From NCBI RefSeq assembly GCF_016026235.1, contig NZ_CP065613.1: a stretch of 64,000 nucleotides of DNA; one strand, given 5' to 3'. The position numbers were made by a program, and so were the translations under genes. This document shows, piece after piece, positions 12,286 to 29,549 of the stretch (within the stretch, counting starts at the first letter, position 1; each line of letters starts with the position of its first letter). The DNA is from Escherichia coli (GTDB lineage Bacteria; Pseudomonadota; Gammaproteobacteria; Enterobacterales; Enterobacteriaceae). The notes under the pieces were generated by a model, which ran no database searches, was not told the origin of the DNA, and saw only the letters and a list, made by a program, of their open reading frames with translations.

Positions 12286-12887
<602 letters not shown>

Positions 12888-12918: not shown

Positions 12919-13674
12919 CTACATATCTGCCAACAACATCCCAGCCATACCATCCAGTCGCTTCTTAACCTTTTCCCAGCCCGGCATAACCTGCCCCATC
13001 AGACGGTAAAACTCCTCGCTGTGGTTGTGCTCAGCCACATGGCATAACTCATGTAGCAAAACATAATCGATACATTCTGAGGATGCCTTAACCAGCCATG
13101 GATTCAGGGTCAGACAGCCTTTTGCTGAACAGTTGCCCCATTGCGTTTGCATCGCCCGCAGACGTATCGGAGGACGCTCACTGACCCAAAGGGTCTGCGG
13201 AATCAGTAAATCAAGCCTGCGCTGAAAAACATCTCTGGCACGTTCCCGATACCATTCAGCCAGCAAGGCTTTAATCTTTTCTGCCGATTTGTGTCTGACA
13301 GTCACTTCCAGACGCCCACGCAACATTTTCACTCGTTGCGGCACAGTAGCGTCTTCTGTCACTTTCAACTGATATTGCTTACCGAGATAATAATGGCTTT
13401 CTCCGCTGACATACTGACGCGGAACAATGTGTATCTGTTGCTCCCTGAAATCACGCAGTTGCTGGTATATCCAGCGCCCACGTTTTTTCAGCGCAGACAA
13501 TACCTCGTGCTCCGGTGTTTCAGGCGGTACAGAGGCCACAACCCGGCAGTCCGGATAAACCTTAATGAGCACCCTGCCCTTTACGACCTGACGCGGAACA
13601 CACTGTACGACGATGACCTCATCACCATAGACAATGCGTAACGCTTTCATTGATGGCGATTCTTTTTCACTCAT
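12919..13674 (-). CDS. M48-family / DUF45 (YgjP-like) zinc metallohydrolase, 251 aa, coupled to hsdR
   Basis: HExxH motif 'HELCHVAEHNH'; start overlaps the hsdR stop by 4 bp. Confidence 0.75.
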   Translation of the reverse strand: MSEKESPSMKALRIVYGDEVIVVQCVPRQVVKGRVLIKVYPDCRVVASVPPETPEHEVLSALKKRGRWIYQQLRDFREQQIHIVPRQYVSGESHYYLGKQYQLKVTEDATVPQRVKMLRGRLEVTVRHKSAEKIKALLAEWYRERARDVFQRRLDLLIPQTLWVSERPPIRLRAMQTQWGNCSAKGCLTLNPWLVKASSECIDYVLLHELCHVAEHNHSEEFYRLMGQVMPGWEKVKKRLDGMAGMLLADM

Positions 13675-16600
13675 GATTTCATCAAACCAACGCGCAGTAT
13701 CTGGATGATGGTTTCAACAATACGGTTAACCTGATTCATTCCGGCACCAATTTCCCGGCAGGCCGTAAACAGCAGTGGTAGCAGACTTGTCTTAACGACT
13801 TTCTCAATGTCCTGGGGGTTCAGGGAGTTTTCTGCCACCGCTTTGACGATAATGTTGTCCACTTCAAAAGCCAGCTTCGTCCACTTATCCTGCACCTGAA
13901 CGTCGTTTACCGCAAAAACCTCAGGTAGCTCTTTTTTAAATACACCGTAATACGCCTGAGCATGCTTGTTTACCGCCAGTGCATCCGGGATATCGCTGAG
14001 CTTACGGGCTTCAACCTGTTCTTCAAATTCACGGAACAAAAGGTACTGTTTCAGCGGATGGTCAAACAGTTTTTCAGCCTCTTCGATAGCCATACGCAGG
14101 AGTTTTGAAAATGCCTCCTGAGCATACGGGTCATCACGCAATTCCTGCTCAATCATCTTTGTCACACGGGTTTTAATGATGTCGGTTTCATTGCGGGTTT
14201 TATTGTTGTCCCACTCTTCGGGCTTTTCGCTCTTGCCCATTTTACCGACTTCATACACGCCATCCGGTTCACGAACTTCAACGCCGGTGACATGCTTATC
14301 CAGCAGTTTTTTCACCTGCTCAGCGTAGTCGTCATAATTGACCTGCTCTCCACTTACCTGCATCGCCCACTGGCGCAGGCTGGACATCTGTTTTACGGTT
14401 TCTTTATAGAGATTTCGGTCTTGTTCCGTAAAGCTCTTGTCGGTGAAGAAGGTAGCGGACTGCAGTGCCACTTTCAGGCATCCGGCAAAGGCCGTTAACG
14501 CCTCGAAGAAATCATCACGGGTTTTCTGATGGATATCGACCATCTCTCCGTCACGTTCTTCCATTTTAGGCACCAGTACCGCACGTAACTGCTCAGTATC
14601 ATTTTTGTTTTTAACACCGGCAAATATGGCCCACAGCTGGTTATACAGATGCGGCAGGCGCTTGTATTCAGAGCTCATGGCGCTGTACAGCCCGTCAATA
14701 TCTTTGATATCGTATCCGCCCTGAGTTCGGGAGGCGAGGTCCTGATATTTGCCGATAGTCGTGTCCAGCTCAGCCAGAATACCGCGATAATCAATCAGCA
14801 GACCGAACTTTTTTAGTGGATGCAGTCGGTTCACCCGCGCAATCGCCTGGATAAGGTTGTGGGACTTAAGCGGCTTGTCGATATACAGCACGGTATTCTT
14901 CGGCTCATCAAACCCGGTGAGCAGTTTATCAACGACTATCAGCAATTTGAGCTTCTCATCGGTATCGAAACGACTGATGACATTACGGGTATACACAGAC
15001 TCATCCTGCGTGCCGACATTATCCTTCCACCATTTCGTCACTTCCGGCAGTTTGCTTTCATCCACTTCGGTATTCCCTTCCCGGGTATCCGGCGGGCTGA
15101 TAACTACAGCTGACTCAAACAACCCGGCTTCATCAAGATACTTTTTATATTTGATGGCGGAAATCTTGCTGTCGCAGGCAAGCTGGCCTTTCAGTCCCTC
15201 ATCAATATTCTTCGAGAAGTGCGTGGCGATATCGAGTGCGATCAGACGGATGCGATCATCTGCACTATAAACCTCACCTTTACGGGCATATTTACGCTTC
15301 AGGTCGGCTTTTTGCGCTTCGCTTAACCCATCGGTAATACGATCAAACCAGGCATCTATTGCCCGATCGTTAACCTCAAGGTCGGGAATACGTTCTTCAT
15401 ACAGCAAAGGTGTAACGGCTTTATCTTCTACCGCTCGCTGCATGGTATAAGCGTGGACAATCGGCCCGAATTTATTAGTGGTCTTATCTTCTTTCAGCAA
15501 CGGCGTACCGGTAAATGCCACAAAGGCGGCGTTCGGCAGTGCCAGTTTCATTCGCACATGGTTCTCACCCCCCTGGCTCCGGTGTCCTTCATCAATCAGT
15601 ACGATGATGTCGGGGCTGGTATTGACGCATTCAGGAAGTTTTGTCGCTGAATTAAATTTCTGGATAAGGGTGAAGATAATGCGTTCTTTACCAGAGCCAA
15701 TCTGCTGTGCCAGTTTCTGGCCAGAGGTCGCCATTGCTTTGGCCTTATCATCCTTTCCGGCCAGTTCGCCACCAGAAGCGAAAGTGCCGCTGAGCTGCCC
15801 TTCAAGATCGACACGGTCCGTCACCACCACAATGCGACACTGCTTCAGGCTGTCATGAAGAATCAGCGCCTTACTGAGGAACACCATGGTGTACGATTTA
15901 CCGGAGCCCGTGGTATGCCAGATCACACCACCTTCTCTGCCCCCGTCCGGTCTGCGGGTGCTTATGCGTTCCAGCAGCCTTTTAATCCCGAACACCTGCT
16001 GATAGCGGGCGACAATTTTCCCGGTCTTTTTATCAAACAGGGTGAAAAAGCGGGTCATCTCCAGCAGACGTTCCGGTGAAAGCAGGCTGATGAGCAGCTT
16101 ATCCTGCCCGCTGACGGCCAGTTCACCGGCGGCGATTAACTGTTGGTACCAGTCGAGATCGGCTGAAGGACGATGATCAAACAACGCATGAATTTGTTCA
16201 GTCGATAACTTATGGTTGCGCAGCGCATACATCTGCGCGTAAGTAATATCTTCTTCGCGCCATGCCGCCCAGAATTTCATTGGTGTATGACAGGTACCGT
16301 AGCGCCCGTCATGCCCGTTAATCGACAGTAATATCTGGCTGTAAGCAAACAGCTGCGGGATTTCGTCGTTGAGCTGATTGCGGATACTCTGGGATATCCC
16401 TTCGTCAATGGTTGGCCCTTTCTTGCCGTGACCCGCCGGGCTTTTCGCTTCAATGACGGCCAGCGGGATACCATTCACAAAACACACAATATCCGGTCTG
16501 CGGGTTTCGACACCGCCTGACCGCAATACCGTAAATTCTTCGGTAAAATGGAACTGGTTATTTTCCGGATGTTCCCAGTCGATCAGCGCAATGGTGGGGT

Positions 16601-16958
16601 TCACCTTCTTGCCATCGACAAACTCCGTGACGGCGATACCGTAGAGCAGATGGTTATACATCCGTTCATTGGCTTTGAGCAGCCCTTCATTGAGCGCCGG
16701 AGAACAGACCTGTGATATCAGGTTATCCAGTGCTTTTTCCGATAACTGGCAGGTTTTGCCACCCGCCATAAAGGAACGCTTCGACAGCTCTTCACGCAGA
16801 ACCGGACGCAGCACCACCTCATCCTGTTTATAGCCCCGGTAATCCATAATCTGTTTCGGAGATAAAAACGTCCAGCCGAGGCTGGTCAGTAACGTCAGTG
16901 CCGGAATTTTGGCGCTGTATTCTTCCTGGAATTTTGGCGTGTACGTCTGGTTCATCAT
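13671..16958 (-). CDS. hsdR: Type I restriction enzyme R subunit (HsdR), 1095 aa
   Basis: Walker A 'TGSGKSYTM', DEAD-like 'DEGHRSQ', and a size typical of HsdR; sits in an operon with hsdM and hsdS. Confidence 0.9.
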   Translation of the reverse strand: MMNQTYTPKFQEEYSAKIPALTLLTSLGWTFLSPKQIMDYRGYKQDEVVLRPVLREELSKRSFMAGGKTCQLSEKALDNLISQVCSPALNEGLLKANERMYNHLLYGIAVTEFVDGKKVNPTIALIDWEHPENNQFHFTEEFTVLRSGGVETRRPDIVCFVNGIPLAVIEAKSPAGHGKKGPTIDEGISQSIRNQLNDEIPQLFAYSQILLSINGHDGRYGTCHTPMKFWAAWREEDITYAQMYALRNHKLSTEQIHALFDHRPSADLDWYQQLIAAGELAVSGQDKLLISLLSPERLLEMTRFFTLFDKKTGKIVARYQQVFGIKRLLERISTRRPDGGREGGVIWHTTGSGKSYTMVFLSKALILHDSLKQCRIVVVTDRVDLEGQLSGTFASGGELAGKDDKAKAMATSGQKLAQQIGSGKERIIFTLIQKFNSATKLPECVNTSPDIIVLIDEGHRSQGGENHVRMKLALPNAAFVAFTGTPLLKEDKTTNKFGPIVHAYTMQRAVEDKAVTPLLYEERIPDLEVNDRAIDAWFDRITDGLSEAQKADLKRKYARKGEVYSADDRIRLIALDIATHFSKNIDEGLKGQLACDSKISAIKYKKYLDEAGLFESAVVISPPDTREGNTEVDESKLPEVTKWWKDNVGTQDESVYTRNVISRFDTDEKLKLLIVVDKLLTGFDEPKNTVLYIDKPLKSHNLIQAIARVNRLHPLKKFGLLIDYRGILAELDTTIGKYQDLASRTQGGYDIKDIDGLYSAMSSEYKRLPHLYNQLWAIFAGVKNKNDTEQLRAVLVPKMEERDGEMVDIHQKTRDDFFEALTAFAGCLKVALQSATFFTDKSFTEQDRNLYKETVKQMSSLRQWAMQVSGEQVNYDDYAEQVKKLLDKHVTGVEVREPDGVYEVGKMGKSEKPEEWDNNKTRNETDIIKTRVTKMIEQELRDDPYAQEAFSKLLRMAIEEAEKLFDHPLKQYLLFREFEEQVEARKLSDIPDALAVNKHAQAYYGVFKKELPEVFAVNDVQVQDKWTKLAFEVDNIIVKAVAENSLNPQDIEKVVKTSLLPLLFTACREIGAGMNQVNRIVETIIQILRVGLMKS

Positions 16959-17007
16959 TAATCCTTTTCTTTCTGGCGCTACTCGCTACTGGTCACATGA
17001 AGATTCA

Positions 17008-17691
17008 TCAATGCAGACAGCACTTCTTAAATTTTTTACCGCTGCCACACGGACACGGGTCATTTCGCCCGGGCATGTTTTCTGCCCCCTTCACTGGAAC
17101 AGGCCGGGATGATGCCTCTGACATTCTCACCGACAACCAGTGCTGGTAAAGCGCCAGTGCCGCAGGCTGAATGAGAGTAATACTCTGTTCAAATTGAACA
17201 GGTGACATTTTCTCAACCACTGGGAAGTTCTTTTCGATACCATGAAGGGCTATCGCCTCCAGCGAGGGACGTAAGGCCTCTGGCAAGGCTGACCAGTCAT
17301 CCAGAGACCGGCCTTTCATATACCCGAAACACCACTCTTCGACGATTGTATATGTCTTCCCCTTCACCTCACGTCCATTGAAAATCGGTTCAAACTGTTC
17401 AGGGGCCTCATACAGGCAGCCAGCGATATCGTTCATATGCTGAAAACACAGCCCCACAAAACGCGTCATCTCTTTTTCAGTGGTCCAGTGAGGGTAGTAG
17501 TCACCTCGCCCCCAGATAGCACTAAGCCAGGTATTAGGGGGGATCATATTCGGGCCAGAGACAATCGCTGTCAGAAAGCCATCCAGCTCAGAGAAACAGA
17601 GCACAGAGTCATCATTGCCGTATTTCAGCAACACCTCTTCCAGCCAGTCGATTTCCCGGTCAATCAGCGGCCCGCTTTTCGTCAGTTTCAT
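17008..17691 (-). CDS. YecA-like UPF0149 protein with C-terminal SEC-C zinc motif, 227 aa, embedded between hsdS and hsdR
   Basis: C-terminal '[18 protein letters not shown]' SEC-C motif; overall similarity to the YecA family as I remember it; start overlaps the hsdS stop. Confidence 0.75.
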
Positions 17692-18914
17692 TCGGCAACC
17701 GCCTCATCGACCTTAACACGACGTTTGCCAGTCAATAGCTGTTGCATCAGGGCTTTTTTCTCATCTCTCAGGCAGGCGAGTTTTTTCTCCAGCGTGGAGA
17801 TTTCGGTGTCAGCAGCGGACAGCACGGCGGCGATTTTTTGTTGCTCTTTAATAAATGGGCAAGAAAAGCTTAAAGTTTCAAAATCTTTCTTGGAAAGTTC
17901 TAAAAATGTTGAGCCAGATGATTTTTTGATCATCTCATTTGTGTTCATTTGCAACAAATAATAAATAAATTCGATATTAAACCCTTCATTCGGAATGATG
18001 TTTTTAAAACCTTGATTGGTACAAATTTCCGATGTCGAAATTGCTAAAGCACCAATGGTAGCTCTTGTACATACCATCAAACTACCTTTTGGCAAAAGAA
18101 CAGCTGAGCTATTTAGTAATCCCGCAGGAGTAATTTTTCTACTAGTATTGCTAACGAACCTACCCGTTAATGCAGTAACATCAGTTGGGGTAAGCCATAG
18201 AATATCGCCTTCCCAATACATGGCCATGTTTGTATCAGGTGTTCCACCGGATACAACTTTGCCCATTTGTATTAGTTTAGTAATTTTCCACTCCCCACTA
18301 AACCTCACCCCATTCTCATCCAACAACCGTTTATTCCCGGTAAGCAATTGCTGCATCAGGGCTTTTTTCTGCTGTTGACTGTTGGCGAGAAGGCTTTCCG
18401 TCACCGAAATTGCCTTATCCCAGGCGGTCAGAATTTGAGATATTTTATCTTGTTCACAAATAGCAGGAGTTTTTATGTTTAACGCTCTAATATCAGAAAG
18501 GTTAATTCTAGAAAAGGTAGAACCACCTGCACTTTTTGCTATCTGTCGCTGGACTAAATCTGATTGTAATGTGTAGTAAATAAACCGCCAATCTGCATGG
18601 ATTGCTTTAATTAAGACAGTGTCTTGCCCTAATACAAATGGCTTTTTGGAATCCACATAGCTAACAACACCGACAGACTGGTTACGACTCATAACCAAAT
18701 CACCTTGTTCAACAACACAGTGATCCATCAGAGAGCGATATTCTTCTTCTGTAACTCTTTTTACAGGTGAAATCAGATCTAAGGCTCCCCATTTTATCGT
18801 CCCCGGTGAGACAAGTGGTATTCCCGATTTAACGTACTCAGGAGTCCTGTGTTTGCAATCGATTATCGACGCAACCGATGAGAGTTTCTGAGATGACCAC
18901 CCCTTAGGAATCAT
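17688..18914 (-). CDS. hsdS: Type I restriction-modification specificity subunit (HsdS), two target-recognition domains
   Basis: Two copies of the conserved '[11 protein letters not shown](N/K)(K/R)R' repeat separating two variable domains. Confidence 0.9.
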
Positions 18915-20427: not shown

Positions 20428-20799
20428 GAATCATCCTGGTCTGAAGAAAAAGCTAGCGATGCAGGGCTTTGCATCTTAAAAATTTCGGTAAATGATACCG
20501 TAAGATGCCTCCCCTGACACGCCAATATCGCAGCATTCAGGTTTGCATCATCCCCGTAATATCGACATGAGACAGACTGACACAACCTGGCTCGTCACTC
20601 GCTAAAAACCAATTATCTTAGTAAGATAGCATCCATATTAGCCATGGTGTAAAACTGCCGTTGGGGTAATGATGATCCATATATCACCCGTTCTGGTGTG
20701 TGAAGCTGACATCATCCATAATCGGCAACGTTGATGCCCTTTGATAGTAATGATGACCGTCAATGTGATTCCCCTGCTGACTGGAGGTCTCCGGATAGT

Positions 20800-21966
20800 A
20801 TGAGTATTACCAACTGCGTTATCGGCCCACTTTACGATGAGCAAATAAAAAAAACACTTATGTATGCTGACCATAAATTCAAGCGGCTAATGAATACACG
20901 AATGTCGTTACTCGAACATTTATCACCCCACTATGACTTATCTTCCATGTTCAGCTATGAGTTGGAGGGAAGAGTTTTTCGGATTAAATTGATCAAGCCT
21001 GAGATTAAATTATCTCGCCAGCAGTTGATCTTCTCCTCACTCTTTTTAGAGCAAGATTTTCTAAAAGAATATAAAAAACACATCTCAAATACTCTACAAA
21101 AAACAATCAAACAGTGCATTAAAAAATACAAACAAAAAATCAAAATCGAGCCTTCTATTTTAGATTACATATCAGCGTCACCCCGCAATACGTCGAGTTA
21201 TGTATTACATGAGATAGTTTCTCAATGTGAACATTGCGATGAAATTCGCAATATTAAAAATGATATATTGCTTGATGAACTAACGTTGAATGGCCGGATC
21301 ACTAACATTTCAAAATACATTAAAAACAGTCAAGATAAAATCGTCGAACATATAGAGTTCTGCACTCATAAACTTGTCAATATAAGTCGTAAGAATCGTC
21401 ACATTTTCAACAGCACCACAATCTCTGGCAGAAAACCCAACATCACTGGTGTTTTACTTTGCCTTTCAGAATTGATAAGCAACCTGCATATTTACCCAAC
21501 TGAAATTAATAATATAAGCAATGCCATAATATTAAGCATTGTATACTCTGTACTTCAACATCTTCAATCCGGAAGAAAAACAGAAAAAACAAAAACCTCT
21601 CCAGCACTGGATTTCATCCCCACCATCATCGCACCTCATGTTTTCTACCTGGCGAAACGCGAAAAATCCTCTCAATATAAATACATTGAAAAAGAATATC
21701 TTCTCGGCCAGTTACTTATATTTTTGATGTATAAAACAGTTTACTACTCGATTCATAACATCAGGGTAAGCCGTAAGCATTTCTATAACGATATAAAACC
21801 AAAATTAATGATACTAAAAAAAGAAAGCTTATTAAGCACCAATTTCATGAAAAATCGAAGAGAGATTAGTGGTGAAGTCTTTGGTGATGTTGGTAGTATT
21901 GAGGCTGATTTTCGAGAAATCAGCACATTGATTCATCGGCGAAAGGCTCTGTTTATTTCCTTTTAA
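20800..21966 (+). CDS. Hypothetical protein, very AT-rich, no recognisable domain (~388 aa from the ATG at 20800; ORF extends to 20731)
   Basis: Long ORF in a strongly AT-rich stretch; Lys/Ile/Asn-rich; SD-like 'ggagg' upstream of the ATG at 20800. Confidence 0.5.
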   Translation: MSITNCVIGPLYDEQIKKTLMYADHKFKRLMNTRMSLLEHLSPHYDLSSMFSYELEGRVFRIKLIKPEIKLSRQQLIFSSLFLEQDFLKEYKKHISNTLQKTIKQCIKKYKQKIKIEPSILDYISASPRNTSSYVLHEIVSQCEHCDEIRNIKNDILLDELTLNGRITNISKYIKNSQDKIVEHIEFCTHKLVNISRKNRHIFNSTTISGRKPNITGVLLCLSELISNLHIYPTEINNISNAIILSIVYSVLQHLQSGRKTEKTKTSPALDFIPTIIAPHVFYLAKREKSSQYKYIEKEYLLGQLLIFLMYKTVYYSIHNIRVSRKHFYNDIKPKLMILKKESLLSTNFMKNRREISGEVFGDVGSIEADFREISTLIHRRKALFISF

Positions 21967-22368
21967 TCTTTAGAGAACACTATATCATCGTGAAGCAGAG
22001 CTAATTTCAGCCTTGCATAGATCATTATCAATGCCATAGACAGTGTTAATCATATGACATCGTTCCGGTATTGATACTGATTATCAGGCCTTGGTTTTAT
22101 GTAATTTAAACACCACCATCTCTGAAACCTCACAGTGCTCATATTTTAACCATAAAAACTAACCGATTTACACCCGCCACACACCGTCATAACTTATTGT
22201 ATTTAAATAGCTATAAGCCTCTAACTCACTGATTACACCATTAAATTCAAGCCATATCCTTACGCAGATTCAAGCTTGCCCCTGCTGCCATTCACGTTTT
22301 AGGATTACCTCGCTAACACGACATGCTACTTTTTAAATCAGTGTAATAATTCAAACGAGGATAAAATT

Positions 22369-23499
22369 ATGTTCGAGAAAATGAAAAACAATGTAACCCG
22401 TATGCCGGGGAATTTAACAAAACTTAATCAATACCAAAAAGACATTGATCACCTGTCTAAACTATTTTCTGAACAGCAATTACTGGAACTAATGACGACT
22501 ACCGAATCCGATCAAATATTGCAAATGAAGCCTGCTGTAGATATTCTTCATGTACTATCTCCATCAGCATCTACTGCTAAGCATATCAATTTTTTTCAGC
22601 ACGTCCCAGTGCTCGAACAATGGTTAAAAAAGGAGTGCACTGCCTTTAATTTACTGGCAGTACATTTCTATTCACAGCAATCCCGTAAAAATGTAATTCC
22701 GAAAGAAATCTGTATGCTACTGGATGCATTTATTGAAACTGAACTTTCATCTGCGGTTAATGGTAATAATAATGCCGAACTCCTTTCTTGTTTTCAAAAC
22801 ACGCTGGATAAAATGTGCAATACACTAACATTTATAGACCACACAGTTACGGAACAATCAGGTCAAGTAGCAATGCTTGATTTCAGCGCAAAAATGCATG
22901 AATATACTGTTGAAATCAGGACCTTTTTGAAGTCTGAATACTGGCTAAACAAACTACCTAAGGATATTAACATTCCAGCCATTGACCTATCCTGGCTTGT
23001 GTTTTGTTACTTTTGCTCTGAATATCTTTTTGTATTTATTCAAACAACGCTCAATACAATGAAGGCAGGAAAAATCATTCGTGATAACTACCTTTATCAT
23101 CCTAAAATGATTGCATTGATCATTTTATCTATGCTGCCTTATGAAGTCATTCATAACGATGGATCACTGAATAAGTTTAAAACGCCTTTAACCAGCCCTG
23201 ATGAGTTCATAATCAAATCTATTTGCATTAAAGGTAAGCAAAACACTACAGGGCATAAAAAAGATATAGAACAATTGCTTCGTAAGACATATATCTATAT
23301 TGCATTACTCTTAAACCCTGAGTGGGCACCATCTTCCAAGGAGTTGATTTCCTTTTTATCAGGAAAGTCCTCAGTGATAAGTGGTTCACTCAACTTCCAG
23401 TCAACCTCCAGTGGTCTGGGTGTTCAAACAAACAATATAACTCTTCTTAAGAATGAGGTTTACTTCGAAAAAATAGCGAACAAGATCATGAAACTGTAG
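22369..23499 (+). CDS. Hypothetical protein, AT-rich, no recognisable domain, 376 aa
   Basis: Long ORF in the same AT-rich stretch; 'gaggataaaatt' SD precedes the ATG. Confidence 0.5.
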   Translation: MFEKMKNNVTRMPGNLTKLNQYQKDIDHLSKLFSEQQLLELMTTTESDQILQMKPAVDILHVLSPSASTAKHINFFQHVPVLEQWLKKECTAFNLLAVHFYSQQSRKNVIPKEICMLLDAFIETELSSAVNGNNNAELLSCFQNTLDKMCNTLTFIDHTVTEQSGQVAMLDFSAKMHEYTVEIRTFLKSEYWLNKLPKDINIPAIDLSWLVFCYFCSEYLFVFIQTTLNTMKAGKIIRDNYLYHPKMIALIILSMLPYEVIHNDGSLNKFKTPLTSPDEFIIKSICIKGKQNTTGHKKDIEQLLRKTYIYIALLLNPEWAPSSKELISFLSGKSSVISGSLNFQSTSSGLGVQTNNITLLKNEVYFEKIANKIMKL

Positions 23500-23642
23500 T
23501 TTCTTAATATAATGGCGACATGGAATTGTGTTGCCATTATATCCGAATCTGCGTTTTTTCACCTGATGAACTGTGAAAGCTGTAACTGGCAGACTATAAC
23601 CTCACATCGTATTTTTCCAGTGTCATTTACAGGAGAAATACG

Positions 23643-24779
23643 ATGCCTATTCTGGATCTGCGTTTCAGCAACAAATCAATTCACCAACTTCCACATCCCC
23701 TCACGGGTTGTCAGGAATACCGTGATATTCACTGCCAAAACCTGCGTGCTCTGGTGTATCCCAATCGGATCACGCTGGCCTTTCGTGCCACTATAAACAA
23801 TCAGCGTATATATGAAACCCTGGGTCAGTTCCCTCAGCTCTGCGTTGAGGATGCCCGTCAGCATGTGATGAAACTGCTTGCTGATAAAAATCGTCTTGCG
23901 GTTCAGTCCCGTCGATTCACTGTGGAACAGGCCATCAATGACCTGTGGCTACCGGATTTGCAGTTGTATAAAAAGAGTCCTCAGTCAGAGTTGTCAAAAC
24001 TCAACCTCTACGTTCGCCCGTTCTGGGGCAAGCGGCAACTTCGCGACATCACGGCAGGAGAACTAGAACAATATGCTGCTGGCTTACGGGAAAAATTACG
24101 TCCGTCAACAGTAAACCGTATCCTCGCAATATTGTCCAAAATATGCTCTCTGGCAGTACGTGCTGGATGGATCACACATTCCCCGATGTCACATGTCCGC
24201 TATCTGAAAGAAAATAACATTCGCTATCGCACACTGTCAGCGACAGAAATCCCGCGCTTTATTGACGCGGCAACAGCGCTGCAAACACCGGCAGCTGATT
24301 CTATATTGCTTGCTCTTTATACGGGGATGCGTATTGGTGAGGTATGTACCCTGAAATGGGAGTACTGGCACCCGGATATGCATCAACTCATACTGCCTGA
24401 TACAAAGTCCGGACACCCTTTCACCTGCCCACTTGCACCTCCAGCCATTGCAGTTGTCCAGTGCCAGCAGGACCTGATGCTCAGCAAAACTTACATTTTT
24501 CCACAACTAACCGACAATGCCCGCCCTCTGGCATATCCGCGTGCAACCTTTGCCCGTATTTGCCGGGATGCCGACATTGATAACCTGCGGATGCATGACC
24601 TGCGCCGTACCTTTGCCACCCGGGTACTACAGGCGACCGGGGATATTGCAATCGCTTCCCATCTGCTAAATCACCATTCACTCACGGCGACCCGTCGCTA
24701 CGCTTTTCACAATGCAGCGACATCACACGCAGTGGTTTCTCAGGTCATAGAAAGTTATGACACAAAAATGAACCTATGA
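23643..24779 (+). CDS. Tyrosine recombinase / phage-type integrase (second integrase of the island), 378 aa
   Basis: Catalytic-domain pattern 'LYTGMRIGEV...MHDLRRTFATR...LNHHSLTATRRYA' (R..H-x-x-R..Y); SD 'aggaga' before the ATG. Confidence 0.8.
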   Translation: MPILDLRFSNKSIHQLPHPLTGCQEYRDIHCQNLRALVYPNRITLAFRATINNQRIYETLGQFPQLCVEDARQHVMKLLADKNRLAVQSRRFTVEQAINDLWLPDLQLYKKSPQSELSKLNLYVRPFWGKRQLRDITAGELEQYAAGLREKLRPSTVNRILAILSKICSLAVRAGWITHSPMSHVRYLKENNIRYRTLSATEIPRFIDAATALQTPAADSILLALYTGMRIGEVCTLKWEYWHPDMHQLILPDTKSGHPFTCPLAPPAIAVVQCQQDLMLSKTYIFPQLTDNARPLAYPRATFARICRDADIDNLRMHDLRRTFATRVLQATGDIAIASHLLNHHSLTATRRYAFHNAATSHAVVSQVIESYDTKMNL

Positions 24780-24921
24780 TCTGTGATTCGTGATTGATGC
24801 AACACTCGTTTAAGGACGGTATTGTCATTGCATGCTTCTGCAGGGCCCTGCATTAAGTCATCACAGAATGTGGATTGATATTAAATCCGCGTGGCTTCTT
24901 ATTCTCTGAAACCGGAGGTTT

Positions 24922-25050
24922 ATGTATTTAACCATTAAGCAGTTCGCAGAAAGATTTAATCTTTCTGCATCCACGGTTGCGTCAGATATATCGCGCAACC
25001 CCGGAAAACTCCCGCCCTTCATCAGAATTGGGCGGGCTATACGATTCTCT
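24922..25050 (+). pseudogene. AlpA-like helix-turn-helix regulator/excisionase gene truncated by IS1
   Basis: 'MYLTIKQFAERFNLSASTVASDISRNPGKLPPFIRIGRAIRF' resembles AlpA-family phage regulators; reading frame runs into the IS1 terminal repeat at 25051. Confidence 0.55.
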
Positions 25051-25065
25051 GGTAATGACTCCAAC

Positions 25066-25569
25066 TTACTGATAGTGTTTTATGTTCAGATAATGCCCGA
25101 TGACCTTGTCATGCAGCTCCACCGATTTTGAGAACGACAGTGACTTCCGTCCCAGCCTTGCCAGATGTTGTCTCAGATTCAGATTATGTCGCTCAATGCG
25201 CTGAGTGTAACGCTTGCTGATAACGTGCAGCTTTCCCTTCAGGCGTGATTCATACAGCGGCCAGCCATCCGTCATCCATACCACGACCTCAAAGGCCGAC
25301 AGCAGGCTCAGAAGACGCTCCAGTGTGGCCAGAGTGCGTTCACCGAAGACGTGCGCCACAACCGTCCTCCGTATCCTGTCATACGCGTAAAACAGCCAGC
25401 GCTGACGTGATTTAGCACCGACGTAGCCCCACTGTTCGTCCATTTCAGCGCAGACAATCACATCACTGCCCGGTTGTATGCGCGAGGTTACCGACTGCGG
25501 CCTGAGTTTTTTAAGTGACGTAAAACCGTGTTGAGGCCAACGCCCATAATGCGTGCACTGGCGCGACAT
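25066..25569 (-). CDS. insB: IS1 InsB frame (variant isoform)
   Basis: -1 frame overlapping insA within the IS1. Confidence 0.85.
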
Positions 25570-25763
25570 CCGACGCCATTCATGGCCATATCAATGATTT
25601 TCTGGTGCGTACCGGGCTGAGAGGCGGTGTAAGTGAACTGTAGTTGCCATGTTTTACGGCAATGAGAGCAGAGATAGCGCTGATGTCCGGCAGTGCTTTT
25701 GCCGTTACGCACCACGCCTTCAGTAGCGGAGCAGGAAGGACATCTGATGGAAATGGAAGCCAC
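25488..25763 (-). CDS. insA: IS1 InsA (variant isoform)
   Basis: '[37 protein letters not shown]...'. Confidence 0.9.
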
Positions 25764-25936
25764 GCAAGCACCTTAAAATCACCATCATACACTAAATCAG
25801 TAAGTTGGCAGCATTACCCATCTTCAAATGGGAGTACCAGCTCTGTTTTCAACAGACTCATTACTGACTCCGGAAGAAGGAGCGACGGCAGGTCTTGCCA
25901 GTTCGAGACAAATTTCATTGAATAATCCTCATAAAC

Positions 25937-25972
25937 AAAAAACCCGATACGATTAACGTATCGGGGTTTTTA
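25937..25972. terminator. Rho-independent terminator-like hairpin (aaaaaacccgatacg-attaa-cgtatcggggttttt), bidirectional
   Basis: Perfect 10-bp stem flanked by A-run and T-run. Confidence 0.7.
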
Positions 25973-26013
25973 TACATCCGCATAACTATTATTTACAGTT
26001 ATTGGTTTTCTAT

Positions 26014-26256
26014 TTAAATTCTTTCATAATACCCACAGTCCATACAGATAAGCACTGGCGCATTATTTCTTTCACACTGTTCAAGGAATCCAAATAGTTT
26101 TTTAATAGCCTTAATAATTTCTTTCAGTATTTCAGGTAAAAACTCCAGGCTAATATACCCAGAGCGTTTATTATCGGTTATCGATGGCAGTTTTCCTGCT
26201 GAACTTATCAATGTATTACAACTGCCACACTGTGGGCATTTTAAATGCATCCTCAT
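26014..26256 (-). CDS. Small zinc-ribbon protein (two CxxC pairs), 80 aa, AT-rich
   Basis: 'CPQCGSC' near the N-terminus and 'CMDCGYY' near the C-terminus. Confidence 0.45.
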   Translation of the reverse strand: MRMHLKCPQCGSCNTLISSAGKLPSITDNKRSGYISLEFLPEILKEIIKAIKKLFGFLEQCERNNAPVLICMDCGYYERI

Positions 26257-26286
26257 TCTCCATATTTATAGTTTGCTAAAAAGTAG

Positions 26287-27486
26287 TCACATCTGCTTCG
26301 TAGCCGCAGTATTCAGAAGCAGGTCAGTCACTCCCTGCCCTGTCTGACGCATACGTTCCGGTGTTAATTTCGCGTAACGTTCTGTACTCTGAATACTGGC
26401 ATGCGCCAGTTGGGCTTTAACGTCATACAGGCTGAATTGACCACTCGAAACCAGTAAAGAGGCAACAGAATGACGTGTGGTGTGAAAACAGACTTCATTC
26501 TTGTCTATACCGCACTGTGCCAGTATTTTTTCATATGCCCATCGGGGTTCCGATATCGGTTTTCCATTATCCTTAATGGCGAACAGATACGGATTACTGC
26601 CAACTCGTGGGATAGCATCAATAATCGATAATGCGGCATCGCTTAGATATACCGTCCGACTGCGACCATTTTTTGTATAAGGAATGAACAGAGTACGATT
26701 GGCCCGGTCGATATGTTCATGCCTGACATTAAGCATTTCTGATTTGCGTGTACCGGTTAACAACAACATGGCTATCAATCCCCCGGCAGCTTTGTTGGGA
26801 TATTGGGTAGCAGCGTCAAGAATGCGCCTGATCTCATCAGCATCAAAAAAGCGCGTCCGCTGATTATTCTCTTTCAGTAAAGGGATCTTATCGGCTTCAT
26901 TCTTTTCCAGCACATCCTGTCGCAACGCATAACGCCCCATCGTTTTCAGAATAGCAAGGGCTCTGTTACAGGTAGACGGCGCATATTGCTGCCCGTGAAT
27001 ACGCCCCTCCAGCATGTCAAACAGCACCTGTTGTATCTCTCTGGCCCTGAGATCGCAGTAACGTATCTTTCCCAGACGAGGTTCAATGTATTGCGTGAAA
27101 CGCTGAACATCCTTATCCCAGGACTTTTTATGGCGTTTGATGAACGGAACATAGGTCTGGTGAAAAAACTCACTAAGTGTTGGCATCGCACGATAATTAT
27201 CGCGTTCTGCTTTAGGGTCATTTCCCAGTGCAATCGCCTCCTTATGACGGCGAGCTATCTGGCGAGCTGTCCCCACATCAATTTCAGGGAATCTGCCAAT
27301 ACTGATACTTTTTTTGGTACCGTGGAATGTGTAGCGCAGGAGGAAACGTTTGTTACCCGTTCGACCTGAGAGACATTTGAGGCCAATAACTTCGGTATCA
27401 GATACCTCAAGCTCTGTAGATCTGGTATCTGTGTTTGCCGGAAGGGCTTTGATGGATGAATTGGTGAATCGGAAGGATTTTTGCAT
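26287..27486 (-). CDS. int: P4-type tyrosine integrase (tRNA-proximal integrase of the island); probable start at the Met at 27486, ORF extends to 27516
   Basis: 'LLLTGTRKSEMLNVRHEHI' and 'CFHTTRHSVASLL...STERYAKL' catalytic motifs; N-terminal 'FTNSSIKALP' arm-binding region; 'gaggat' SD before the ATG at 27486. Confidence 0.85.
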   Translation of the reverse strand: MQKSFRFTNSSIKALPANTDTRSTELEVSDTEVIGLKCLSGRTGNKRFLLRYTFHGTKKSISIGRFPEIDVGTARQIARRHKEAIALGNDPKAERDNYRAMPTLSEFFHQTYVPFIKRHKKSWDKDVQRFTQYIEPRLGKIRYCDLRAREIQQVLFDMLEGRIHGQQYAPSTCNRALAILKTMGRYALRQDVLEKNEADKIPLLKENNQRTRFFDADEIRRILDAATQYPNKAAGGLIAMLLLTGTRKSEMLNVRHEHIDRANRTLFIPYTKNGRSRTVYLSDAALSIIDAIPRVGSNPYLFAIKDNGKPISEPRWAYEKILAQCGIDKNEVCFHTTRHSVASLLVSSGQFSLYDVKAQLAHASIQSTERYAKLTPERMRQTGQGVTDLLLNTAATKQM

Positions 27487-27566
27487 ATTTATCCTCATGT
27501 ATCTGATTGATATCATGGAGATAATATATATCTGAAGGTGTTTTTATTACGGGGCAGGATTGAAGA

Positions 27567-28307
27567 ATGGAAAAGCTATTAGACGCGTACAAACGGATAT
27601 TACAGGAAGTTGACGCCCAGTCATTTAACCTGAATGAGGATAAATACTCAGGCGTCTTTTTACCCGTGCCCTTTGAAGAATACTGGCACTCACCGGTAAA
27701 AATCATACTGGTTGGACGTGAAACCGCTGGCTGGAATACTCTGAATGGTAAGAACACGATATCACGGGTGCTGGGACTTATACCTGACGTCACCATCGGG
27801 CAGGTGGTTGGAGAGGCTGTAGATCGTTACAGGAATCATCTTCCGGTACAAAATGATGGCACCACGAACCTCAAATCACGTAGCCGCTTCACGCAGTATC
27901 ATTTCCGGCTGGCCCGGGAGCTTAATATTCCTCCTCAGGCTATCGTGTATGCCAATCTACTGGCGTGGGATTACGACGGACTGACCCCTCTCAATCGCCC
28001 TCAAAATGAAGTGCAGGAAGTTATATTAGCCTCGCTGAAGCTGCTGGCGGTACAAATTAAACACCTTGAGCCTGATTTCATCATCTTTGCATCCGGAGCC
28101 CGGAGAACAGACTACATCATAAAACAGGTGCTTACTGAGCTGGGCGGCTATGAGACTTCTGCAGTCATTCCGGGGAAGCTATGGGAGTTCAAAACAGGTA
28201 ATGCAATCTGTTTCAGAATTGCCCATCCACGGGCTATGCGCGGACACCAGAAGTACAGAGATGAGGTGATTGCACGAATTAAGCAACTTTGTACTCAGGG
28301 TGGCTAG
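27567..28307 (+). CDS. Hypothetical protein, 246 aa; weak resemblance to a uracil-DNA-glycosylase-like fold
   Basis: ORF between the integrase and the tRNA; 'KIILVGRETAGW' and 'IAHPRAMRGH' loosely resemble UDG motifs A and B. Confidence 0.5.
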   Translation: MEKLLDAYKRILQEVDAQSFNLNEDKYSGVFLPVPFEEYWHSPVKIILVGRETAGWNTLNGKNTISRVLGLIPDVTIGQVVGEAVDRYRNHLPVQNDGTTNLKSRSRFTQYHFRLARELNIPPQAIVYANLLAWDYDGLTPLNRPQNEVQEVILASLKLLAVQIKHLEPDFIIFASGARRTDYIIKQVLTELGGYETSAVIPGKLWEFKTGNAICFRIAHPRAMRGHQKYRDEVIARIKQLCTQGG

Positions 28308-28491
28308 AGCATTACAGCTTGCTCAGCGGCCCCCTTCCCGGAAGCGTACCGGAAAACAGGCAAAGCGGCCTGGTTCTCTATGCTGGAAGCGACACGTTCG
28401 ATTCGGCATTGCCAGGCTGAAGATTGCAGCTCATCGCACCCCGTGAGCACAGGATATGCACAGGACATGAATTTCAGGCACAAAAAAACCA

Positions 28492-28520
28492 CCCGGAGGT
28501 GGTTTCACGACACTGCTTAT
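28492..28520 (-). terminator. Rho-independent terminator of the glyW-cysT-leuZ tRNA operon
   Basis: Minus-strand hairpin 'gaaaccacctccgggtggttt' followed by a T-run, directly 3' of tRNA-Leu. Confidence 0.8.
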
Positions 28521-28546
28521 TGCTTTGATTATTCTTGTCTTTCCCA

Positions 28547-28633
28547 TGGTACCCGGAGCGGGACTTGAACCCGCACAGCGCGAACGCCGAGGGATTTTAA
28601 ATCCCTTGTGTCTACCGATTCCACCATCCGGGC
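28547..28633 (-). tRNA. leuZ: tRNA-Leu (anticodon UAA), 87 nt
   Basis: Minus-strand sequence gcccggatggtggaatcggtagacacaagggattTAAaatccc...gggtacca; long variable arm and CCA end. Confidence 0.95.
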
Positions 28634-28645
28634 TCGGGAAGAAAA

Positions 28646-28719
28646 TGGAGGCGCGTTCCGGAGTCGAACCGGACTAGACGGATTTGCAATCCGCTACATA
28701 ACCGCTTTGTTAACGCGCC
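28646..28719 (-). tRNA. cysT: tRNA-Cys (anticodon GCA), 74 nt
   Basis: Minus-strand sequence ggcgcgttaacaaagcggttatgtagcggattGCAaatccg...cgcctcca. Confidence 0.95.
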
Positions 28720-28773
28720 AAATTCTTCAGGCCTTTCAGCCAGACATCCGCTTGACGCCGATGTCTTTTAAAC

Positions 28774-28849
<76 letters not shown>

Positions 28850-29000
28850 ATTCATCAAGCAATCAGTTAATCACTTGATTTTATTATCGTCTGGCAATCA
28901 GTGCCGCCGTTCGATGCGTTGCATTCTACTTACCTGGCGCGATGAGTCAACGATATTTTTCACCACTTTTGATCGTTTGCTGAAAATTACGCCGAAACGA

Positions 29001-29549
29001 TCACTGATCAAGCAAATCTGCACGCGCAGCGCTCAAATATTGCAACATTGACCACAGAGTCAGTACCGCAGCCACAAAGAAAAGTGCAATACCGGCGTAC
29101 TCAACCCAAATGTTCGGACGCCACAGCAGCCAGGCCAACGCCACCATCTGGGCAGTGGTTTTCACTTTCCCAATCCAGGAGACAGCCACGCTACTGCGTT
29201 TACCCAACTCCGCCATCCATTCGCGTAGCGCAGAAATAATAATTTCACGGGCGATCATCGTTGCCGCCGGTAGGGTCACCCACCAGCTGTGATAATGCTC
29301 GGTTACCAGCACCATGGCGATAGCCACGAGAACTTTATCTGCTACAGGGTCAAGGAAAGCACCAAACCGGGTACTCTGGTTCCAGCGGCGTGCCAGAAAA
29401 CCATCGAACCAGTCAGTCACCGCCGCGACGCAGAAAATGAGCGCGGCGGCAAACGGCGACCAGGTGACAGGCAGATAAAAGACCAATACAAAGAATGGGA
29501 TAAGGATGACACGGAACAGTGTAAGCAACGTAGGGATATTAAATTGCAT
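29001..29549 (-). CDS. pgsA: CDP-diacylglycerol--glycerol-3-phosphate 3-phosphatidyltransferase
   Basis: 182-aa membrane protein with CDP-alcohol phosphotransferase motif '[10 protein letters not shown]...[10 protein letters not shown]'; conserved position next to glyW. Confidence 0.95.

Follow-up and report, generated by a model that had tools for sequence, protein, structure and literature searches.

A 64,000-nucleotide stretch of Escherichia coli DNA (contig NZ_CP065613.1; the window in what follows) carries two tyrosine recombinase genes beside one tRNA-Leu gene, and the question that this locus raises is whether the island around them records one integration or two. An earlier note had taken the recombinase further from the tRNA, together with an AlpA-like gene cut short by an insertion sequence, as the remnant of a second integrative element that marks a boundary between separate arrivals of cargo. 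Here, we argue that positions 1–28633 are, with high probability, a single pipolin at leuZ in which a copy of IS1 has replaced 7,832 bp of the core; the locus displays a mobile element in ordinary decay and not a second element.

Pipolins are mobile elements whose defining gene encodes piPolB, a primer-independent DNA polymerase of family B (Redrejo-Rodriguez 2017, Flament-Simon 2020, Mateo-Caceres and Redrejo-Rodriguez 2024). Those of E. coli integrate at Leu-tRNA and carry a UDG at the right end, and where a pipolin has two recombinases, one of them adjoins an excisionase-like gene (PMC7385651). Enterobacterial pipolins place IntSXT beside the tRNA, and IntP2 followed by the excisionase beside piPolB; IntSXT and the IntP2–excisionase pair are considered their ancestral core (PMC11551731, PMC7385651). 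The gammaproteobacterial core is given as IntSXT, IntP2–excisionase, DUF2787 and WYL, and insertion sequences and deletions occur near IntP2 (PMC11551731).

The island is bounded at tRNA-Leu (leuZ) by a single pair of direct repeats of approximately 112 bp, and both integrases lie inside it. The attL-side repeat (1–114) consists of the 3′ 56 nt of tRNA-Leu and about 56 nt downstream; BLAST aligns it with the attR-side copy (28491–28602) at 96.5% identity over 114 columns. The attR-side copy overlaps the tRNA-Leu(taa) gene (28547–28633, minus strand), the whole feature (28491–28633) being delimited by ARAGORN and a repeat search. A BLAST search of the window found no internal copy of this repeat, only the terminal pair. 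Beyond tRNA-Leu(taa) lie tRNA-Cys, tRNA-Gly, pgsA and uvrC, and relatives show the same chromosomal context. The window itself starts inside or at the attL-side repeat.

At the tRNA end, a 399-aa tyrosine integrase (26287–27486, minus strand; Pfam Phage_integrase and Arm-DNA-bind_3), whose open reading frame could be extended to 27516, is identical over 399/399 residues to a site-specific integrase of E. coli S30; the name IntSXT for this type is taken from the pipolin literature. Between it and the tRNA lies a 246-aa gene (27567–28307, plus strand) that is present in every relative sampled and whose product has no match in Pfam, NCBIfam or PDB sequences. A family-4 UDG is placed at this position in pipolins (PMC7385651), and this is its putative identity here. 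On the other side of the integrase is an 80-aa open reading frame from the ORF list with two CxxC pairs (zinc-ribbon-like; 26014–26256, minus strand), whose Zn_Ribbon_YjdM match is weak and below the cut-off (E = 5e-4); the S30 annotation lists no feature at its position. It is separated from orf123′, a gene fragment described below, by a bidirectional terminator-like hairpin (25943–25965) with six G–C pairs in a 9-bp stem and T-runs on both strands.

The second integrase, int378, is found where the earlier note had placed it, approximately 4 kb from the tRNA. It is an intact open reading frame of 378 codons (23643–24779, plus strand), free of internal stops and situated at the IntP2-type place in the pipolin core. 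A gap of 3.8 kb separates its end from the 3′ terminus of tRNA-Leu (28547), compared with 10.8 kb in S30; the core deletion has brought the two closer together. The catalytic domain is recognized by PF00589 Phage_integrase (E = 4e-21; score 76 bits, cut-off 27.1) and the protein by PHROG_1 integrase (E = 6e-52). An alignment to XerA (5hxy) covers the stretches YTGMRIGE, HDLRRTFAT and LNHHSLTATRRY, which we take to hold the catalytic residues R, HxxR, H and Y. End to end, int378 is 27% identical to the tRNA-proximal integrase, with whose arm-binding-type N-terminus its own N-terminal region aligns, and it is identical at 378/378 residues to its positional counterpart in S30 (WP_032636140.1 there). 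Most probably, int378 and the AlpA-like gene beside it are the pipolin's IntP2-type recombinase and excisionase. The IntP2 label is adopted from PMC11551731, where a secondary role is suggested for IntP2 and the excisionase in pipolins.

The AlpA-like gene, xis′ (24922–25050, plus strand), retains the first 43 of 66 codons, as a comparison of its translation with the S30 gene reveals, so that the earlier description of a short AlpA-like helix–turn–helix gene cut by the end of an IS1 was correct. Its open frame runs on to 25131, the 26 codons after codon 43 lying inside IS1, while codons 1–43 correspond to the start of the intact 66-aa S30 protein (WP_000281555.1 there). The NCBI annotation pipeline names the intact product an AlpA family regulator in strain ET358, and the intact protein matches both TIGR01764 'excise' and PHROG_66 'excisionase'. 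Against HTH_17, for which the cut-off is 27 bits, the intact homologue scores 36.5 bits and xis′ 25.7; the fragment spans profile positions 1–42 of 51, short of a complete domain, and xis′ is a truncated HTH_17 member. The order of IntP2 and then excisionase is retained in the window with int378 intact and xis truncated; in relatives xis is complete and is followed by orf212 and piPolB, so that in intact elements the pair opens a row of four genes read in one direction.

The element that interrupts xis is a complete IS1 of 768 bp (25051–25818, minus strand), delimited by its inverted repeats, its flanks, Pfam InsA and DDE_Tnp_IS1 matches and the breakpoints in S30. Terminal inverted repeats and the InsA/InsB frames (insA 25763–25488, insB′ 25569–25066, minus strand) identify it as IS1. 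A simple insertion would be flanked by a target-site duplication of 8–10 bp, usually 9 bp; as had been reported earlier, the 9-mers on the two sides differ (CGATTCTCT and CATCTTCAA), and the 8- and 10-mers differ too. The other full IS1 of the window (4342–5109) serves as a control and has a perfect 9-bp duplication, AGTAAATCG. No matching target duplication was found in the window: CGATTCTCT has no second copy there, and CATCTTCAA has one further copy, at 21559, within an open reading frame with no adjoining insertion sequence. The IS1 in xis, described earlier as a divergent isoform, shares 91% identity with the IS1A-like copy at 4342–5109 and with annotated IS1A, but the isoform is a common one, neither odd nor chimeric. 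The best match, of any length, has at least 99% identity to it in 3,926 records of E. coli genomes, and the isoform occupies a median of 11 places per genome. A hybrid of two isoforms was considered and rejected, since full-length copies of 100% identity are widespread in E. coli genomes.

Comparison with related islands, which the earlier note had proposed as the route to the ancestral arrangement, supplies it directly: S30 has the intact 7,832-bp core. Alignment with the S30 locus (L003) sets the ends of IS1 independently, with window position 25050 corresponding to L003 18332 and 25819 to L003 26165. The sequence between them, L003 18333–26164, is missing from the window, and the flanks are collinear and in the same orientation. 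Lost with these 7,832 bp are the 3′ third of xis, orf212, piPolB, orf108, the WYL regulator, DUF726, DUF2787, orf177 and most of orf123. The genes at both junctions are truncated, xis at codon 43 and orf123 after codon 33; the remaining fragment of this core orphan gene, orf123′ (25819–25918, minus strand), was recognized by its match to the S30 translation and encodes MKFVSNWQDLPSLLLPESVMSLLKTELVLPFED, residues 1–33 of the 123-aa S30 protein, the intact form of which matches PHROG_32947. The flanks in the window have 98–99.8% DNA identity to intact pipolins. The earlier proposal of an IS1-mediated deletion or recombination is supported because IS1 stands in the window in place of sequence that holds the two flanks 7,832 bp apart in S30.

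The principal casualty is the hallmark gene. A tblastn search of the whole window with S30 piPolB gave chance matches only (E > 3), and the window therefore encodes no piPolB. The 866-aa protein at the syntenic place in S30 has D59, E61, D368, K613-H614-X8-K623-T-R625-G and SVTTDG, with the residue numbers reported for the characterized E. coli piPolB (PMC5695915); it has weak polymerase matches in Pfam and PHROG, and its RefSeq name in other strains is 'DNA polymerase type-B family protein'. DUF2787 and WYL, which lie between piPolB and IntSXT, are likewise absent from the window, both being inside the deleted stretch (in S30, WYL+WCX+HTH_DeoR gives E = 1e-10 and DUF2787 E = 4e-40). Strictly defined, the element is no pipolin but a deletion derivative of one. 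Its pipolin identity rests on synteny with, and near-identity to, intact relatives.

In all nine sampled E. coli relatives that retain this integrase (loci L001–L005 and L007–L011, L006 excepted), int378, xis, orf212 and piPolB follow one another. The genes to the left of int378, two orphan genes, are the same in seven of these nine, six of which also share the gene for the M subunit of a type I restriction–modification (R-M) system; they differ in 99-3165 (L002) and FJ_Ec_21. Among 5,426 complete E. coli genomes, neither the left nor the right junction of the window occurs (0 in each case), nor does an intermediate with IS1 and its duplication at either site, and the junction event is private to this strain. 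An apparent match to the right junction in strain 21AR0133 was rejected, the IS1 there being at a different position, and four matches of '83% coverage' proved to combine into one place IS1 copies that lie upstream of the integrase, a different arrangement. Strain 21AR0133 has a loss of its own: an IS1 without duplication accompanies the loss of 14,265 bp of core, the deletion ending 188 bp from the window's right breakpoint, and orf123 was struck by a separate IS1. Another IS1 without duplication adjoins IntP2 in 99-3165, which has been named as a pipolin-bearing strain, and strain L37, also named as such, matches the window's right flank (PMC7385651).

Could int378 and the AlpA-like gene still be the leftover of a separately acquired element, nested or tandem, that divides the cargo into sets? 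An integrase followed by alpA is a common head of P4/CP4-57-like islands, which favours such a reading, as do the low identity (27%) between the two recombinases and the change of genes to the left of int378 in 99-3165 and FJ_Ec_21. The literature lends it some colour, in that tandem pipolins are reported in Vibrio and IntP2 has been speculated to have entered pipolins long ago from another mobile element, yet reinfection is not seen in Enterobacterales (PMC11551731). Against it, the sole pair of att repeats encloses both integrases, the tRNA repeat has no internal copy, and neither the window nor intact S30 yielded an att pair of the second integrase, which would have told for a separate element; the region upstream of int378 and the int–xis spacer share with the island and with S30 only repeats of 12–14 nt, a chance level, and nothing longer. 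The core order is constant, orf212–piPolB coming after int–xis in every relative that keeps the pair, and in most of them the genes to the left are the same as well. The int–xis pair is confined to chromosomes, with a median of one location per genome and a maximum of two, and the number of genomes that have it is close to that for piPolB (288 and 296 of 5,426). We consider a separately acquired element very improbable; recent acquisition of int378 as a second element is largely refuted, and a recombinase that belongs to the conserved pipolin core cannot serve as a boundary between arrivals of cargo. The opposite polarity, in which the window preserves the ancestral state and the 7.8 kb of S30-like strains were inserted later, is a formal possibility whose probability is negligible: the reading frames of xis and orf123, whole in relatives, are cut short in the window, which refutes it, IS1 occupies the junction, and the long form is present in around 290 genomes while the window junction is present in none of the 5,426.

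For a single pipolin that lost its core, adjacent deletion by IS1 is the most likely mechanism. IS1 would have inserted at one of the two sites, on the xis or the orf123 side; one of its ends would then have transposed intramolecularly into a nearby target, the classical adjacent deletion, which takes out the DNA in between and one of the two copies of the first target duplication. IS1 is said to make such deletions by itself, a property reportedly described by Reif and Saedler in 1975. The same end-state, one IS1 with unrelated flanks in one collinear element, would result if two IS1 copies in direct orientation, in xis and in orf123, had recombined homologously and so removed the 7.8 kb and one IS1. 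The abundance of the isoform and the separate IS1 that struck orf123 in 21AR0133 make such a course conceivable; it requires, however, that one isoform inserted twice, independently and in a single orientation, and that recombination followed, none of the 5,426 genomes has IS1 at either site, and IS1 alone is generally known as a classical maker of adjacent deletions. We regard recombination between two copies as rather unlikely. By adjacent deletion or otherwise, the product is a piPolB-less pipolin relic that retains both integrases, both att repeats, the gene at the UDG position and the distal defence cargo. It is probably fixed in place or poorly mobilizable, because the replicase is lost and the excisionase is crippled.

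The annotation of the 28.6-kb island is corrected accordingly: it is one pipolin whose second integrase is conserved core, and it is therefore not to be split into two acquisition events. The locus is a case, clean and resolved to the base, in which IS1 has eliminated the hallmark polymerase and left both recombinases, both att sites and the defence cargo in place. Tools keyed to piPolB, such as ExplorePipolin, would by their method probably miss it. The strain would amount to a natural piPolB knock-out of a pipolin, and could be a natural control for the need for piPolB and the excisionase in pipolin excision or maintenance. Such relics may outnumber what piPolB-keyed surveys suggest, an idea that we advance tentatively and at somewhat less than even chances, because at a coverage of at least 80% the right end with IntSXT and the UDG-position gene is found in 360 of the 5,426 complete genomes and piPolB in 283, and because a core deletion associated with IS1 is present in at least one other strain (21AR0133). 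If this is true, the prevalence of pipolins is underestimated, and selection would be keeping the defence cargo after the loss of the replication and mobility core.

Comparison with known systems highlights both similarities and differences. Islands of the P4/CP4-57 type resemble the window in having a co-directional integrase and AlpA-like winged-helix gene; in intact relatives of the window, however, orf212 and piPolB come next, there is no P4 alpha primase–helicase or other satellite function, and int378 has no att pair of its own that would mark a separate second element. With IS1 adjacent deletions the window shares a complete IS1 with intact ends, the missing target duplication, and collinear flanks between which relatives have 7.8 kb. 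The 'truncated pipolin' subgroup (PMC11551731, Figure 3B, pipolin 2) likewise displays IS-associated erosion of the core, with deletions between IntSXT and piPolB and insertion sequences near IntP2. This subgroup is monophyletic, keeps piPolB and has co-integrated prophages (PMC11551731), whereas the window has lost piPolB with both recombinases intact, in an event absent from 5,426 complete genomes. The closest counterparts are the pipolins of E. coli. From these the window differs in lacking piPolB, WYL and DUF2787 and in its truncated excisionase, and with them it shares the site, tRNA-Leu beside pgsA, and direct repeats of approximately 110 bp, an integrase, putatively of the IntSXT type, and the UDG-position gene at the tRNA end, the order of IntP2-type integrase and then excisionase, and a distal defence cargo of type I R-M, Hhe and GmrSD-like genes.

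The second integrase, IntP2, is encoded by an uninterrupted reading frame for 378 aa (23643–24779, plus strand) that matches the Phage_integrase catalytic domain (E = 4e-21) and the integrase family PHROG_1 (E = 6e-52). A short reading frame, xis, starts 143 bp downstream at 24922 and meets an IS1 at 25051; its truncated product matches the excisionase/AlpA-type winged-helix family HTH_17, with a score below the Pfam threshold. The spacer between IntP2 and xis holds a 14-bp perfect palindrome containing GCAGGGCCCTGC (24839–24852), also found in strain S30, which could be an operator or binding site. The IS1 is exactly 768 bp long (25051–25818) and has inverted ends; its InsA and InsB′ frames are in minus-strand orientation. 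It is bordered by CGATTCTCT on the left and CATCTTCAA on the right, and the 8-, 9- and 10-mers all differ, confirming the absence of a target duplication reported in the earlier note. A second full IS1 in the window, an IS1A-like copy at 4342–5109 that is 91% identical to the junction IS1, carries a perfect 9-bp duplication (AGTAAATCG), so the missing duplication at the junction is genuine and not an alignment slip. Description of the junction IS1 as a divergent isoform holds relative to IS1A but not otherwise, as 100%-identical copies are widespread in E. coli.

Many E. coli chromosomes match the left flank (23500–25050) at 99.5–99.8% identity, in every case exactly up to the IS1 edge and no further; the right flank (25819–26290) is 100% identical to S30 and others. 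In S30 the two flanks are collinear and in the same orientation, separated by 7,832 bp (window 22001–25050 aligns with 15283–18332 of the S30 locus, and 25819–29000 with 26165–29347). Relative to S30, the window lacks the final 23 codons of xis, the HTH gene (66 codons in full); the orphan gene orf212 (212 aa); a gene of 866 aa; a second orphan gene, of 108 aa; genes for a WYL/WCX/HTH regulator, a DUF726 hydrolase-like protein and a DUF2787 protein; a third orphan gene, of 177 aa; and everything after codon 33 of a fourth, orf123 (123 aa). Because genes are cut on both sides of the IS1, the window arrangement is the derived state.

The 866-aa protein has sub-threshold matches to organellar and viral family-B polymerases (Pfam DNA_pol_B_2, E = 0.009) and to PHROG_11768, ‘DNA polymerase’ (E = 5e-7). 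It contains D59, E61, D368, K613-H614-X8-K623-T-R625-G and SVTTDG, the same residues, with the same numbering, that Redrejo-Rodriguez et al. mutated or defined in E. coli piPolB, a primer-independent family-B DNA polymerase (PMC5695915), and in several strains RefSeq labels the gene ‘DNA polymerase type-B family protein’. Pipolins have piPolB as their hallmark. We infer that the int–xis–orf212–piPolB gene string has been severed in the window strain, with loss of the replicase and of the C-terminal third of the excisionase.

A single IS1 standing, without duplication, for 7.8 kb present in S30 bears out the IS1-associated deletion proposed earlier. In an adjacent deletion, one IS1 end would transpose intramolecularly and the intervening DNA would be lost; this appears the most parsimonious route. 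An identical end-state could also have arisen if two IS1 copies in direct repeat had recombined. Since neither IS1 junction occurs in 5,426 complete E. coli genomes, no intermediate is to hand. Strain 21AR0133 (NZ_CM132251.1) offers a parallel to the inferred deletion: an IS1 without duplication (8332–9099 of its locus) replaces 14,265 bp from hsdS to orf123, taking out IntP2, xis, piPolB, WYL and DUF2787. That deletion ends 188 bp from the window's right breakpoint, a proximity that may mark orf123 or the DNA around it as a site that IS1 hits repeatedly. Directly upstream of IntP2, strain 99-3165 has an IS1 without duplication and ET358 a simple IS1A insertion with one.

The earlier note had read IntP2 as the remnant of a second integrative element, marking a boundary between cargo sets. 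The first part finds no support, as both integrases lie within a single pair of att repeats (1–114 and 28491–28602, 96.5% identity), which comprise the 3′ 56 nt of tRNA-Leu(taa) and approximately 56 nt downstream. No third copy of this repeat occurs in the window, and searches of the rest of the window island and of intact S30 for repeats of the IntP2 flanks gave nothing longer than 14 nt. The order int–xis–orf212–piPolB is kept in all nine sampled relatives retaining IntP2 (L001–L005, L007–L011), one of which has a shortened piPolB abutting IS903B. Among the 5,426 genomes, the int–xis segment is found in 288 (262 at 80% coverage or more) and piPolB in 296 (283 at this coverage), both on chromosomes only, with a median of one location per genome and never more than two. 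Nor is IntP2 a general cargo boundary, since two orphan genes immediately to its left (20731–21966, 411 aa; 22369–23499, 376 aa) are kept in seven of the nine relatives, six of which also have the type I restriction–modification (R-M) subunit M gene beyond; the exceptions, 99-3165 and FJ_Ec_21, carry an IS1 or IS1 fragment near a point left of IntP2. Neither orphan protein matches Pfam, PHROGs or NCBIfam. Judged by their 27% identity over full length, IntP2 and the tRNA-proximal integrase IntSXT (26287–27486, minus strand) are old relatives and did not arise by recent duplication; pipolins may have captured IntP2 in the distant past, as the 2024 study speculates (PMC11551731).

Both integrases match the S30 proteins at every residue of the translations (378/378 for IntP2, 399/399 for IntSXT) and both att repeats are retained, so the window element is a piPolB-less relic that its integrases may still recognise; from its gene content, it is probably poorly mobilisable. 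The right end (IntSXT plus the gene in the UDG position) is present in 531 of the 5,426 genomes (ecoli_genomes), and the excess of right ends (360 against 283 for piPolB, at 80% coverage or more) suggests either piPolB-less relics or other islands with the same integrase module, and hints that such relics may be under-counted.

The UDG-position gene (27567–28307, 246 aa) has no sequence match in Pfam, NCBIfam or PDB; its product and that of S30 differ at 11 residues, though both flanking integrases are identical, and the gene has an internal stop in strain SHP24. Between orf123 and IntSXT lies an 80-aa reading frame with two CxxC pairs (26014–26256, minus strand), where S30 lists no feature; after it comes a hairpin (25943–25965) that resembles a strong bidirectional terminator.

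The window cargo comprises an IS110-family transposase gene just inside attL (577–1773), hhe, two GmrSD-type DUF262 genes, and a type I R-M operon with M48 peptidase and YecA-like genes. The anti-phage helicase gene hhe (2076–8600; 1,911 aa in S30, DUF4011 + AAA_11/12 + MTES_1575 nuclease) is broken by the IS1A-like copy into reading frames of 1170 and 759 aa and is probably inactive. In the interval that separates the GmrSD-like genes from the R-M operon, a partial IS1 (12512–12887, within 12300–12887) adjoins an ‘integrase core domain’ fragment (the RefSeq label in relatives); being common to S30, FJ_Ec_21 and 21AR0133, it is an old scar. Inside the operon, an M48/YgjP-like metallopeptidase gene (12919–13674) directly follows hsdR and a YecA-like UPF0149/SEC-C gene (17008–17691) lies between hsdS and hsdR, a layout shared by three of the relatives in which the operon was covered (LR-45, S30 and 21AR0133).

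E. coli pipolins are all located at a Leu-tRNA gene with att-like direct repeats on both sides, and UDG adjoins the recombinase at their right end (PMC7385651); the window island agrees in its repeats and tRNA-Leu site. Carriers in that 2020 study include 99-3165 and L37, and L37 matched the window's right flank. The gammaproteobacterial core has IntSXT near the integration site and, close to piPolB, IntP2 with an excisionase usually behind it, together with DUF2787 and WYL; insertion sequences and deletions are frequent around IntP2, and pipolins are bimodular, with a conserved core towards the tRNA and defence cargo that can be exchanged at the distal end (PMC11551731), a scheme with which the window cargo is consistent. 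The main value of the analysis lies in putting the annotation right and in a natural piPolB-minus pipolin. Among complete genomes, this strain alone has the specific deletion; both the type of element, a pipolin, and its form of decay, IS1 deletion, are already known.
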